Shown in pieces: positions 672-8,380 of a DNA stretch of 11,684 nt (its first letter is position 1; the number at the start of each line of letters is the position of its first letter). A program made the position numbers and the translations under genes. Under the pieces are notes generated by a model. The model made no database searches and was not told where the DNA came from. It saw nothing but the letters and a program-made list of their open reading frames with translations. This DNA is from Octopus sinensis (Eukaryota): assembly GCF_006345805.1 (NCBI RefSeq), contig NW_021826955.1, positions 1-11,684 of the forward strand, written 5' to 3'.

Positions 672-721
672 TCTTGGGGAAATTTTGAAACTGGGTTCTC
701 ATTCCTAAGGTATTTTTCGAT
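672..721 (-). mobile_element. Body segment of the hammerhead-carrying element, minus-strand copy, ending just before the ribozyme core
   Basis: Reverse complement ATCGAAAAATACCTTAGGAATGAGAACCCAGTTTCAAAATTTCCCCAAGA matches 1820-1869 at 45/50 positions without gaps. Confidence 0.9.
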
Positions 722-724
722 AAG

Positions 725-783
725 ATTATTAGTTATTATTATTATTATTATTATATTATTATTATTATTATTATTATTATTAT
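725..783. repeat. (TTA)n microsatellite; 3' flank/tail of the R4/Dong-type element
   Basis: TTA run directly adjoining the element's 3' UTR. Confidence 0.95.
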
Positions 784-951
784 GTTTTTTTCCTTCTTTC
801 TTCAAATTTTCTTTCTTTTCTCGCCGAGTGTTTTCCGTACGCCTAGGACAGAGAAGCTCATTGTATGCATTCCCAGATTACACGCGCAAATTCACAGGTA
901 AGATATGTATTTAAAAAATTTTTTAAATAAATTCATAAATGGATGTTATTT

Positions 952-1585
952 TCACTGCGATAATGCTCTTCTCAGTACATGAGTCGTTCCAGTTAACAAG
1001 ATTTTATGCACTTCCTGTTTGGATGGTAAGCCTGGTATCATTTTCAAATAGCTTTCAGTACCTTTTTGTTATCATTCCTAGAAATCCTACAATCACTGGT
1101 ACTATAGTCGCCTTGAGATGACACATTTTTTCAATTTCTATTAGCAGGTCATTATATTTACTAATCTTGTCAAATTCTTTCGCCGTTATATTGTGATCGT
1201 AAGGAATAAATTAATAAACACACCTTTTACGTCTGATCTTTTATAATAATATCTGGTTTATTAGCTTTTAAAGTTTTGTCGGTATGTACGGGGAAGTCCC
1301 AGAGAATCGACACATTTTCTCCCTCAGTCACAGCTTCAAAACCGCTGACAAATGGTGTTTATATAATTTGTCAGCGGTTTTGATTTTATAATGCCGACAT
1401 ATTGTCCAGTGTAAATACTGTCCGACTCTGTCATGTCTTGCTTTATATTCTACAGGTGCTAAGACACTATACCCTGAGATTAGGTGGTCTATAGTTTCAA
1501 TCTCATCGTTACAGAATCGGCATTTTAGGTCAGCTCCATGTTTTTATCACACTGGCTTGGTAGTTCCGGGTTAATAGTTTTGGTC
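952..1585 (-). pseudogene. C-terminal zinc knuckle + PD-(D/E)xK restriction-like endonuclease of an R4/Dong-type ORF, disrupted
   Basis: DQ/LLTRNYQASVIK/GADLKCRFCNDEIETIDHLISGYSVLAPVEYKARHDRVGQYLHWTICRHYKIKTADKLYKHH/EAVTEGENVSILWDFPVHTDKTLKANKPDIIIKDQT*KVCLLI/IPYDHNITAKEFDKISKYNDLLIEIEKMCHLKATIVPVIVGFLGMITK/GTESYLKMIPGLPSKQEVHKILLTGTTHVLRRALSQ* (/ = frameshift). CRFC at 1511-1522, last Cys replaced by Tyr at 1469-1471, RHD at 1430-1438, PD at 1251-1256, in-frame stop at 1227-1229. Confidence 0.9.
1336..1383. repeat. Perfect 18-bp inverted repeat with 12-nt loop inside the retrotransposon ORF
   Basis: TCAAAACCGCTGACAAAT (1336-1353) / ATTTGTCAGCGGTTTTGA (1366-1383). Confidence 0.95.
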
Positions 1586-1603
1586 TTATTATTATTATTA
1601 TTA

Positions 1604-1652
<49 letters not shown>

Positions 1653-1653
1653 G

Positions 1654-1688
<35 letters not shown>

Positions 1689-1720
1689 TATTATTAATTA
1701 TATATTATTATTATTATTAT
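1586..1720. repeat. (TTA)n microsatellite; 5' flank of the R4/Dong-type element
   Basis: Long, nearly pure TTA run (poly-Tyr artefact in the ORF track). Confidence 0.95.
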
Positions 1721-1794
1721 CGTTCACTGCTGAATCGAATTCGGAATCTTTGGGTTAGTAGCGCCGCGCTCTTAACCACTACGCCATATGCCAC
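1721..1794 (-). mobile_element. tRNA-derived Pol III head (SINE 5' end); probable head of the hammerhead-carrying element
   Basis: Minus strand GGCATATGGCGTAGTGGTTAAGAGCGCGGCGCTACTAACCCAAAGATTCCGAATTCGATTCAG. Box A TGGCGTAGTGG (1776-1786), anticodon-loop-like CTACTAA (Ser-like), box B-like GAATTCGATTC (1732-1742). No intact acceptor stem. Confidence 0.8.
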
Positions 1795-1976
1795 GGCATA
1801 TAATGATAATATTAATAACATCGAAAAATACCTTAGGAATGAGAAACCAGGTTCGAAATTTTTCCAAGACACCTGATGAAGGCTGGAGAGTATATCAGCT
1901 GAAACGTTGTGTTAACAACAAACAAGATGAGGTCAAATAACTGTACATAATTCCTCATCTCTTAAATATAGAACTG
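1795..1976 (+). mobile_element. Hammerhead-carrying short element (Penelope pLTR/retrozyme-like), plus-strand copy with the tRNA head deleted
   Basis: Begins GGCATAT like the minus-strand head, then an AAT-rich spacer, the body shared with 672-721, the ribozyme, a 3' hairpin AGATGAGG(1925-1932)/CCTCATCT(1953-1960), and the end ...TTAAATATAGAACTG shared with the copy ending at 5013. Confidence 0.8.
1868..1913 (+). ncRNA. Minimal type I hammerhead ribozyme (Penelope-like-element type)
   Basis: Stem I GACAC(1868-1872)/GTGTT(1909-1913); core CTGATGA(1873-1879) plus an extra A; stem II GGCTG(1881-1885)/CAGCT(1896-1900; CAGCC in the copy at 4908-4912); GAAA(1901-1904); loopless palindromic stem III ACGT; predicted cleavage after GUU at 1908. 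Confidence 0.8.
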
Positions 1977-2112: not shown

Positions 2113-2466
2113 GAGGCGCAATTGCCCAGTGGTAAGGACAGCGGACACGCGGTTTCGATTCCAGAGCGGGCGTTGTGAGTGTTTATTGAGCGAAAACTCT
2201 TAAGGCTCCACAAAGGTCCGGCAGAGGGGCGGTGGCGAACACTGTTGTACTCTTTCACCACAACTTCCTCTCACTCTTTCTTCCTGTTTCTGTTGTATCT
2301 GTATTTCAAAGGGCCAGCCTTGTCACACTCCCTGTCACGCTGAATCTACATTAAGGGTACACGTGTCTGTGGAGCGCTCACCCGCTTGCATGTTAATTTC
2401 ATGAACAGGCTGTTACGTTGATCGGATCAGTTGGAACCCTCGTCGTCGTAACCGACAGAGTGCCAC
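2113..2466 (+). mobile_element. tRNA-derived SINE (family A), near full length, between (TA)n tracts
   Basis: Box A-like TTGCCCAGTGG (2122-2132) and box B GGTTTCGATTCC (2151-2162). The spacing is short, implying loss of the anticodon arm. The 3' half is homologous to 8640-8770. Confidence 0.8.
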
Positions 2467-3840: not shown

Positions 3841-4000
3841 CACGGACTTCTTTTCGGTTTTGTTCGGAATGCTAAATCCATTCGCAAGGCTTTGGTCAAT
3901 CTGAAGCTACAGTAGAAGACACTTGCCAAATGTGCCGCACTGGGACTGAATACGATACCACGTGGTTGAGAAACAAGCTTCTCGACCACACGTCACGCCA
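3841..4000 (-). mobile_element. tRNA-derived SINE (family B), 5' head and core
   Basis: Collinear with 8233-8375: CTAAATCCATTC.CAAGGCTTTGGTC...GCTACAG...AAGACACTTG...TGGGACTGAA...GTGGTTGAGAA.CAAGCTTCT. Confidence 0.85.
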
Positions 4001-4896: not shown

Positions 4897-5013
4897 GAAG
4901 GTTATATCAGCCGAAACGTTGTGTTAACAACAAACAAGATGAGAACAAATATCCGTCGAATGTAAATAATGTAAATAATGTACATAATTCCTCATCTCTT
5001 AAATATAGAACTG
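4897..5013 (+). mobile_element. 3' part of the hammerhead-carrying element (half ribozyme plus 3' hairpin)
   Basis: TATATCAGCCGAAACGTTGTGTTAACAACAAACAAGATGAG...TGTACATAATTCCTCATCTCTTAAATATAGAACTG matches 1891-1976. It lacks CTGATGA and carries three AATGTA(A/C)AT units. Confidence 0.9.
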
Positions 5014-6181
5014 CCTTGAACACTTGTTTATGATTTTGCACTTTTATTTGTAATGTTGGCAGCAGTGGGACTTTATTTTTCCTTGTTTCAGGGTATAACG
5101 TTTTTAAGTGATTTATAGATCCACATTTGTGGTATCTTGGCTTTCTACCCTCCATGAACACTGACAGGTGAGTACCATCCTGGAAATCGATTAGATCGGG
5201 CAGCTGGTCGATATGGTCCTGCTTGCATTGCAAGGTCAGTTCCATACCTATACCTAACCAGTTTTGTTTAGGTAGTTTATTGACCTCCAATATTTTGACT
5301 TCGTCTTCTACTAAACCTACCAAGACGGCCACCACCAACCAGGATATTTCTGGTGGAACATTCAGCACCCTATTCTTGGCAAGGCGTTGGCCGCGACAAC
5401 TGGTAATTAAGAAAAAGTTATCATTCCTCAAAGTGGTTGCGGAATTATATCTAGCTTCTTCTAGGCGGCGAGCTGGCAGAAACGTTAGCACGCCGGGCGA
5501 AATGCGTAGCCGTATTTCGTCTGCCGTTACGTTCTGAGTTCAAATTCCGCCGAGGTCCCCTTTGCCTTTCATCCTTTCGGGGTCGATAAATTAAGTACAA
5601 GTTACGCACTGGGGTCGATGTAATCGACTTAATTCGTTTGTCTGTCCTTGTTTGTCCCCTCTATGTTTAGCCCCTTGTGGGTAACAAAGAAACATATATC
5701 TAGCTTCTTCTTCCGTCCCAATTCTCACCTCAATGGTTCCAAACTTCTTTCCTCTGGTGATGTAGGTCTTTTGTTTCCCACACGCACCCAAGGCATTTTT
5801 GTACTTCGTTCTCAGGAGCATTTTCCACTCGCCGAGACTTGACTCCAATGCAACGGTATGTTACCGTACATCTAGCGATATTTTATTTCACGCAGATGGA
5901 AGGTTTAGAGCCATCCTTCTCTCATCTCTTTTTACAATTTTTCTTACCAATTTTAATTCTTCATCTATGCGGAAACTTTCCATATTTCCCGCCGCCGATG
6001 CAAAAGACGCAGAGGCGATATTTGCGTTTTTATGTTTCATTTCTTTCGTATTGTTGTTGTTGCAGCTGTCACTGTTGCTGTTGTTGTTCTCGTTGTCGAC
6101 ACCGAAAGTTTTGACGTTGCTCAGAGACGAAACATTATTCGCCTTGGTGACGTCATTAAGTTTAGGTCGTTCGATATTCAT
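5014..6181 (-). pseudogene. Decayed gag-like ORF1 of a non-LTR retrotransposon with a degenerate CCHC zinc knuckle, interrupted by a SINE
   Basis: ORFs 5888-6181 and 5591-5848 share a frame with two stops between them. Removing the SINE and one TSD joins ...RGKKFGTIEVRIGTEEEARY to NSATTLRNDNFF...VLNVPPEISWLV...EGRKPRYHKCGSINHLKTLYP. The knuckle reads Y-X2-C-X4-H-X4-Y at 5093-5134. Confidence 0.7.
5463..5694 (+). mobile_element. tRNA-derived SINE (family C), full length, with 17-bp target-site duplication
   Basis: Begins AGGCGGCGAGCTGGCAGAAACGTTAGC; box B GAGTTCAAATTCC (5536-5548); TSD TATATCTAGCTTCTTCT at 5446-5462 and 5695-5711. Confidence 0.95.
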
Positions 6182-6471: not shown

Positions 6472-6666
6472 TTTGTCACAAGGGCAGCAGTTTTTTTTGG
6501 GGGGATGAGTCAATTACATCGATCCCAGTGTTCTTATTTCATCGTCCGCGAAAAGATGAAAGGCAAAATCGACCTCACTGGAACTTGAACTCAGAACGGA
6601 GGGACGGGTGAAATACCGCTAAGCATTTCGTCCAGCGTGCTAGAAATTCTGCCAGCTCGCCGCCTT
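6471..6666 (-). mobile_element. Family C SINE between (TAA)n tracts
   Basis: Reverse complement begins AAGGCGGCGAGCTGGCAGAATTTCTAGCACGC and is collinear with 5464-5630. Confidence 0.9.
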
Positions 6667-6689
6667 AATAATTATAATAATAATAATAA

Positions 6690-6787: not shown

Positions 6788-7078
6788 CTTTCTACTATAA
6801 GGAGTAGGTCGGTTACATCGACCCTAGTGCTTGACTCCGAAAGGATGACAGGCAAAGACAAACTCGGCGTTATTAGTATTGATACACACAATATTGTGCA
6901 AGCTTCCGCAGCCTTGAACATACGCTAATACGTTCAATGCTTATTTTATCTACCCTGAAAGGATGAAAGGATGAAGTTGACCTCGACGGAATTTGAACTT
7001 AACAGTATTTTACCGTTGCGATGTTCAAGACGACGGAAAAATACCGCTGAGACTTTTGCCCGGCGTGATAACAATTCT
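6788..7078 (-). mobile_element. Two partial, rearranged family C SINE copies (~6788-6870 and ~6940-7078)
   Basis: CCGAAAGGATGACAGGCAAAG and CTGAAAGGATGAAAGG...GACCTCGACGGAATTTGAACT...AAATACCGCT...CCGGCGTGATAACAATTCT match 7170-7274. Confidence 0.75.
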
Positions 7079-7290
7079 TTTCTACTCAAAGCACACGGCC
7101 CGAAATTTTTGGGGAGGGGCCCAGTCGATTAGATCGACCCCAGTACACAACTGGTACTTAATTTATCGACCCCGAAAGGATGAAAGGCAAAGTCGACCTC
7201 GGAGGAATTTGAATTCAGAATGTAAAGACAGACGAAATACTGCTAAGCAATTCGCCTGGCCTGCTAACAATTCTGCCAGCTCGCCGCCTT
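7076..7290 (-). mobile_element. Family C SINE, full length
   Basis: Reverse complement begins AAGGCGGCGAGCTGGCAGAATTGTTAGC; CTTTCATCCTTTCGGGGTCGATAAATTAAGTAC is identical to the plus-strand copy at 5463. Confidence 0.92.
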
Positions 7291-7519
7291 AGATTAGGTT
7301 AAACATTACAGTCAACTTTACTCACTACTATGTACTAAATTTACTATGTATGGTTAAGTTAAAAGTTCCACCTGCCAAAGGTCACTACTACACACTAAAT
7401 GCAGTGTGTATGATGCGTATATTGATTTATTGTATTTTCTAATCTGAAACTAAATTCCTACACTTAAAAGTGATAGAGATGCTAGATAGCAGATAGTGGT
7501 AAATATTGTCGGTAAATTT

Positions 7520-8235: not shown

Positions 8236-8380
8236 AATTTCCGTCTACTAAATCCATTCACAAGGCTTTGGTCGGCCCGAGGCTACAGAAGACACTTGAC
8301 CAACGTGCCACGCAGTGGGACTGAACCCGAAAGCATGTGGTTGAGAAGCAAGCTTCTTACCGCACAGCCACGCCTGCGCC
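8026..8380 (-). mobile_element. Family B SINE with an internal (TG)n microsatellite; 3' end cut at the MITE
   Basis: Minus strand GGCGCAGGCGTGGCTGTGCGGTAAGAAGCTTGC...GGTTCAGTCCC (box A/B), core as at 3841-4000, then (TG)n at 8128-8232 and a unique tail. Confidence 0.88.

Follow-up and report, generated by a model that had tools for sequence, protein, structure and literature searches.

The window, that is the whole stretch of 11,684 nucleotides of Octopus sinensis DNA that was analysed (contig NW_021826955.1), carries between 672 and 1976 a decayed head-to-head inverted pair of one repeat, with an R4/Dong-like fragment in one of its spacers. The left arm lies on the minus strand and comprises a body (672-721) that is truncated before the hammerhead, an (AAT)n spacer, which in family copies stands between head and body and here is divided into a part next to the body (722-783) and a part next to the head (1588-1720), and a tRNA-like head (1721-1792) that forms the 5' end of the element and is a predicted internal Pol III promoter. 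The arms meet at a palindromic junction (1787-1800, centre 1793-1794). On the plus strand, the right arm consists of a 7-nt remnant of the second head (1795-1801), an internal deletion and an (AAT)n spacer (together 1795-1819, by comparison with the intact pairs L018, L028 and L137), a body (1820-1867), a minimal type I hammerhead (1868-1913) and a long tail (1914-1976) that ends at the distal of the two 3' ends found in the family. The head of the right arm is internally deleted, the left arm is split by the insert and shortened, and no target duplication is evident around this pair, whose left arm is truncated there. A separate 5'-truncated copy with the 3' half of the hammerhead and a long tail lies at 4897-5013 (+). 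A preliminary description of this DNA had pointed out this third fragment, the match of the left body (672-721, minus strand) to 1820-1869 and the hammerhead and 3' hairpin directly following the right-arm body, and all three were recovered here, the match with the same 45 of 50 identical positions. Overlooked at that stage were the palindromic junction, the second-head remnant and an ATG at 1839-1841 in the right-arm body, the predicted start codon, which is the first in-frame ORF start in full-length copies.

The hammerhead has its core at 1873-1879 and 1901-1908, stem I at 1868-1872/1909-1913 and stem II at 1881-1885/1896-1900 (fold z -1.95), and cleavage is predicted after 1908. As in the minimal hammerheads of Penelope elements (PMC4209133), stem III is palindromic and has no loop, and one base bulges out ahead of stem II. 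The hairpin of the tail (1925-1932/1953-1960) folds with a z of -2.6. Across the family the hammerhead core is unbroken in 59 of 128 arms, and one common subfamily variant in the core falls on its single free position, 1877 in the window (T in 82 and A in 41 of 124 arms), where it exchanges Asp for Glu in the reading frame that runs through the ribozyme. Rfam detected neither a hammerhead nor a tRNA in the window, and ARAGORN and Rfam did not call the head at 1721-1792 (-) as a tRNA; the models of both overlook degenerate or minimal forms.

The insert in the left spacer (784-1587, minus strand) is a later insertion, the broken, 5'-truncated 3' end of a non-LTR retrotransposon that translates as a broken C-terminal ORF and has no match in a Pfam search. 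The preliminary description had named it R4/Dong; its nature as a broken non-LTR 3' end stands, and the same insert sits in the spacer of this element family at three further loci (L012, L015 and L148, 89-92% identity), while the R4/Dong-like label itself is tentative and follows motif resemblance. At least three families of non-LTR elements that target microsatellites have landed repeatedly in the (AAT)n spacer, the Dong-like insertions being accompanied by 3' ends of other repeats at L026, L030, L131, L152, L157, L207 and L208. Elsewhere in the window, another SINE-like repeat with a tRNA-like head occupies 2114-2460 (+) and recurs at L069; a further SINE-like repeat is present at 5463-5690 (+) and, on the minus strand, at 6494-6667, 6833-6999 and 7106-7291, in copies that are 76-89% alike; and a third interspersed repeat occurs twice (3872-3999 and 8248-8374, 80% alike). 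Octopus tRNA-derived SINEs, namely OK, OR1 and OR2, were reportedly described by Ohshima and Okada in 1994. An open frame of 210 codons at 4907-5539 (-), which overlaps the third fragment, may be a LINE ORF1 remnant, to judge by its resemblance. An imperfect 142-nt palindrome at 235-376 with a hammerhead-like 3' motif near 326-340 may represent two inverted copies of the end of a different PLE.

The unit of head, (AAT)n, body, hammerhead and tail, about 250 nt long, constitutes a single genuine dispersed family. An exact 31-mer spanning hammerhead and tail has 3,177 matches in genome G000 (control: 0), and three family loci, all of them inverted pairs, were found in 40 evenly placed 10-kb stretches, from which the family is estimated at about 20,000 loci (95% interval 4,200-60,000). 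Three sets of 29 loci each were compared after removal of one duplicate and of the loci belonging to the window itself. A head on the same strand and at most 400 nt 5' of a body or hammerhead was present in 23 loci of the set retrieved with the 3' part, in 22 of the set retrieved with the head and in 12 of the set retrieved with an exact tail motif. It had been considered earlier that the head might precede the body and hammerhead no more often than chance, i.e. that two independent insertions had hit one TAA tract; the linkage counts in these three locus sets reject this. Among loci found by the end of the ORF described below, 26 of 29 have the head linked to a body or hammerhead. Most copies lack the ORF, its 3' end lying upstream in five of the 29 motif-found loci, and all copies that were read are broken, differing by about 4-8% from the column majority. 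Copies are mostly single or inverted, with a head-to-head layout in 23, 18, 13 and 13 of 29 loci in four locus sets, and partial tandems occur in only a few loci (e.g. L017, L043 and L137).

The dispersed unit carries Penelope-type and not LINE-type insertion marks, in line with the possibility raised in the preliminary description that a Penelope RT and not a LINE mobilised it. Where both arms of a pair could be anchored, 24 of 27 pairs joined a long to a short tail and the other three a long tail to a truncated arm, and 15 of the 27 lay between target duplications that, with up to one mismatch tolerated, measured 10 nt or more, versus a rate of 0.000 in controls with mismatched flanks. A looser classification, which gave two long-long and one short-short combination among 42 candidate pairings, was rejected, these cases reflecting over-extended alignments and multiple copies. 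The two 3' ends are discrete and 34 nt apart, the short one in the loop of the tail hairpin and the long one just past it, and RNA reads leave the reference at the corresponding positions of L203 (600/601 and 634/635). An optional tail and an inverted partner copy are known from Penelope elements (PMC8557442), and for anole Poseidon, whose ORF likewise starts at the hammerhead, two internal RT starts were shown in vitro (PMC11167929). Variants are common to both arms of a pair more often than expected at three of five sites (23/25 versus 13.9, 14/16 versus 8.6 and 8/8 versus 4.7), with weak concordance at the other two (23/28 versus 21.7 and 10/14 versus 7.1). The perfect head-to-head junction motif has 528 strand matches in genome G000, fully palindromic ones being counted twice, and in many other pairs a complete head is joined to a truncated arm by microhomology. 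Because the orientation of the junction relative to long and short arm is mixed in about eight readable cases, fold-back and the joining of two cDNAs are not separated by it.

The unit seen in the window is the pseudo-LTR, at the 5' end, of an RT-encoding Penelope-type element. The full-length order is head, (AAT)n, ATG, hammerhead, tail, ORF, 29 nt and a second head, about 2.7 kb in total. One locus (L206) is complete, with head, spacer, body, hammerhead, tail, a 2.3-kb ORF and again head and body, a second (L203) is complete at its 5' end, and both begin at the head; pseudo-LTR units flank the ORF in L206 and L191. The long tail continues straight into the ORF in L191 and in all eight loci fetched for the ORF start, and the downstream head follows 29 nt after the stop codon. 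The ORF has about 835 codons and was read as a single frame of about 853 codons that contains one majority stop. This frame begins behind a stop codon lying where the head ends, has its first ATG in the body and reads through hammerhead and tail, so that body, hammerhead and tail are the N-terminal coding region of the protein; translated, this stretch aligns with an 847-aa protein (P0004) from residue 14-19 onwards. Tail length changes mainly in steps of 9 nt (56 of the 60 measured long tails). ORF-linked and solo copies alike carry both main combinations of variants, and the solo copies, which form no subfamily of their own at the five sites tested, retain the 9-nt in-frame tail indels; the sharing of variants indicates that the short copies derive from the coding lineage. 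A coding PLE that shares the tail, which the preliminary description had proposed to look for, is represented by L206. The proposal made there of a non-coding hybrid of roughly 250-300 nt stands in so far as a unit of about 250 nt is a real dispersed family, and falls as regards its independence and non-coding nature, the unit flanking an RT ORF of about 2.3 kb.

The ORF contains an RT domain (PF00078), and its closest PDB matches are group II intron-like RTs and telomerase RT. Homologous proteins measure 529-847 aa, the nearest being 52-68% identical, and in a quick tree, in which no named reference PLE was included, the element groups with P0001, P0002 and P0004-P0006 (SH-aLRT 97), apart from another PLE family of the host; the cluster of P0006 contains barnacle proteins. 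Pfam found no GIY-YIG match in the element's own copies, and PF01541 aligned with residues 740-809 of the homologue P0004 at an E of 0.23, below the Pfam cut-off. The C-terminal region matches a PF01541-positive locus (L064) at an E of 0.007, and we take it to resemble GIY-YIG motifs. The element very probably belongs to the endonuclease-type Penelope-like elements. The top PF01541 loci of genome G000 (30 of 147 examined) were considered as partners and rejected, being other PLE families with different hammerheads. These same loci (L061-L090) document several other GIY-YIG PLE families in G000, some with frames of 780-880 codons, each with its own hammerhead variant and a T-containing terminal region. 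No relatives of the element were found in viral contigs. PLE ORFs also turned up in contigs of bacterial MAGs (L323-L328), where they are probably contamination from animal hosts.

The head contains recognizable A-box (1786-1776) and B-box (1742-1732) motifs. An alignment of a sister copy to a genomic tRNA runs from one end to the other and scores 45, against 33.5 for the best of 200 shuffles. The best match of the family head among 34 tRNA loci of a few isotypes, out of 46 loci, is a tRNA-Cys (L306), with Arg and Ala nearly equal, and a wildcard motif for one candidate parent tRNA gave six matches, every one a variant of the family, for which reason no parent isotype is claimed. Counted from where copies of the element usually begin, the A box lies at tRNA position 8. 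Among 29 head-found loci three were classed as running into the UTR and a fourth was added by eye, and the rest start at most about 10 nt from tRNA position 1. A phage search with the head returned chance matches only, and a search for the A/B-box pattern near 80 metagenome relatives of the ORF, many of whose contigs stop near the ORF, detected no head.

Copy number steps up at the same place. Matches to 22-mers number 3,638 at the head start, 552 at the UTR-head junction and 709 in the ORF about 150 nt further upstream, i.e. they fall five- to sevenfold just upstream of the head in a step and not by gradual truncation. Pol III terminates at runs of four or more T. On the sense strand, L191 has no TTTT in 2,630 nt and the column-majority yardstick none in 2,698 columns, and 18 decayed copy segments have seven in 24,977 nt; under three synonymous-codon nulls the probability of finding none was 0.03, 0.007 and 0.002. 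Control PLE frames of the same genome, seven of which come from one family, have at least one TTTT in 11 of 13 cases, and so do 81 of 85 ORF relatives from other organisms (78/80 and 3/5, five of six being examined). The four relatives without TTTT represent three distinct elements with no head detected, and one of them (L209) has a T-rich pseudo-LTR of its own. Since ORFs free of T4 are also known from relatives in which no head was detected, we regard the absence of T runs as suggestive and not decisive (P about 0.01-0.1). The pseudo-LTRs of other PLEs seen contain T runs, and ORF, UTR and pseudo-LTR of this element contain no T4.

RNA data came from three RNA-seq runs of a related organism C, all from one study, of which about 6% each was analysed, together with one contig set. 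Depth per direction is about 1,400-1,900-fold over hammerhead and tail versus 0-20-fold over the ORF; it is equal on both strands, and 88-89% of reads run on into unlike sequence. In the three runs no sharp transcript starts appeared among those listed, and the commonest loose RNA end before the head is the 3' UTR of the ORF. This pattern is passive read-through of thousands of copies, compatible with the presence or absence of a rare Pol III RNA. No circular junction appeared among the joints listed from these standard RNA-seq data, a listing beyond which there were 39 weaker joints, and tandem arrays are rare in the loci seen; the retrozyme part of the preliminary description thus finds no support.

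Together, the start of copies at the head, the copy-number step and the absence of TTTT suggest transcription by Pol III from end to end. That Pol III uses the head for the whole element appears slightly likelier than even on these sequence patterns. The fuller reading, in which a tRNA promoter acquired by an autonomous coding retrotransposon would drive its transcription by Pol III over the full 2.7 kb, with terminator runs cleared from the codons and the front end behaving as a Penelope-mobilised SINE, stands in our view at about an even chance. As the best explanation of the locus we favour a pseudo-LTR of an RT-encoding Penelope-type element whose tRNA-derived head is likely the internal Pol III promoter for all 2.7 kb, an account that we consider fairly probable. 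Transcription would start slightly upstream of tRNA position 1, by a few bases, and continue through the ORF and the downstream pseudo-LTR. The endonuclease of the element would nick both target strands, and its RT would prime internally at two tail sites, as in vitro for anole Poseidon (PMC11167929). Two cDNAs, in most cases templated by a single RNA or by members of a single subfamily, would be joined at their ends into a head-to-head pair, with the short palindrome where the head begins, or some other microhomology, as the link. If the RT primes at the first tail of a full-length RNA, or on RNAs begun at any intact head, it would copy only the 250-nt front end, and such front-end-only copying would lead to the SINE-like excess of short copies. 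The pair in the window is one such head-to-head pair, later struck by the Dong-like insert and by deletions.

Alternatively, the element could be an ordinary Penelope transcribed by Pol II, from a pseudo-LTR promoter or by read-through, with the captured tRNA or SINE head as a passenger or with only the junction hairpin being of consequence, by stopping the RT. Pol II promoters do occur in Penelope pseudo-LTRs of the cases studied (PMC8557442), the RNA-seq pattern of read-through and the lack of TTTT in 4 of 85 relatives would fit as well, and two further points weigh against Pol III: the junction hairpin alone could stop RT and so create the copy-number step, and the translation of an uncapped RNA is unexplained. 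We nevertheless regard Pol II transcription of this kind as rather unlikely, as it has to accommodate full-length copies (L203 and L206) that begin at the head, an A box placed at tRNA position 8 from the usual 5' end, and the lack of T4 in ORF, UTR and pseudo-LTR when other PLE pseudo-LTRs carry T runs. A division of labour is also conceivable, in which Pol III would make only a short front-end RNA, i.e. a Penelope-dependent SINE from the element's own pseudo-LTR, and Pol II the ORF mRNA. It would match the observation that head-started copies are in five- to sevenfold excess and the view that Pol III is too poorly processive for autonomous elements (PMC10886601). Yet it leaves the absence of T4 in the ORF without explanation, and the solo copies, with no private subfamily at the five sites and with their in-frame 9-nt tail indels kept, do not look like a separate lineage; we consider it improbable.

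The original idea of an independent non-coding SINE/retrozyme hybrid, spreading via circular monomers cut by the hammerhead, could draw on the ORF end being present in only five of 29 motif-found loci, on the few partial tandems and on the precedent of schistosome repeats with a Pol III promoter and hammerhead (PMC6765202). The entire unit, however, lies within a coding element, and the ORF-linked copies largely refute the idea; copies end at the tail sites and not at the hammerhead cut, the layout is predominantly head-to-head instead of tandem, and no circular joint was among those listed. This makes such a hybrid highly improbable.

The accepted view assigns Pol II to autonomous retrotransposons and Pol III to SINEs (PMC10886601), and a coding Penelope on a tRNA promoter, if true, would break this split. 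The Pol III reading favoured here would then also provide one route for the birth of a SINE from the 5' end of its own motor, place LINE and SINE equivalents in one sequence, and raise the question of how an uncapped RNA is translated; ribozyme-assisted initiation has been reported for viruses (PMC13725137). The thousands of short insertions with two tail ends, common arm variants and target duplications also offer ample natural material for working out the second-strand step of Penelope integration. For annotation, many copies of the family would be classed as ordinary SINEs, and inverted pairs of about 500 bp would be expected to form double-stranded RNA in host transcripts. No tRNA-headed coding PLE was found in the openly accessible literature searched, and a consensus may already be filed, as SINE or as Penelope, in Repbase, in Dfam, in subscription journals or among the PLE consensus files of PMC8557442. 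In the octopus repeat library supplement of PMC13282606, a term search gave zero occurrences of hammerhead and of Poseidon, and 'tRNA' and 'Pol III' occur zero times in the main text of a retrozyme preprint (bioRxiv 10.64898/2026.07.22.740005).

Among known systems, Poseidon of Anolis carolinensis has the same pLTR-ORF-pLTR layout, a single RT ORF and, at its C-terminus, a GIY-YIG-like region (PMC11167929, PMC8557442), which in the element described here is putative; Poseidon's hammerhead overlaps the ORF start, its two 3' ends lie 30-40 nt apart and its inverted partner is 5'-truncated (PMC11167929). Unlike in Poseidon-clade PLEs, there is here a tRNA-derived head with A and B boxes, a leader of (AAT)n, a sense strand free of T4 and an exact end of most copies at the head; the available text of PMC11167929 mentions no tRNA head for Poseidon. 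The SINE-like Sm-alpha and Sj-alpha repeats of schistosomes are likewise short and carry both a Pol III-type promoter and a type I hammerhead, but they are non-coding tandems with the promoter 3' of the cut, whereas here the promoter stands 5' of the hammerhead and in a coding element (PMC6765202). A small-RNA-derived Pol III promoter within a terminal repeat is likewise found in the TRIMp3 elements Cassandra, Helenus and Ajax, which are, however, non-autonomous LTR elements of 0.3-1.3 kb whose autonomous partners are expected to use Pol II (PMC10886601). Animal non-LTR retrozymes are short hammerhead repeats related to PLE pseudo-LTRs (PMC7229834, bioRxiv 10.64898/2026.07.22.740005), although they are tandem units that give circular RNA (PMC7229834), in contrast to the dispersed inverted pairs with an ORF-linked head described here. 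Finally, the tRNA head, the length of about 250 nt and the tens of thousands of copies are as in tRNA-derived SINEs, but the family lacks a LINE-type 3' simple-repeat tail, has Penelope-type ends and consists of units that are the front end of the autonomous element itself.
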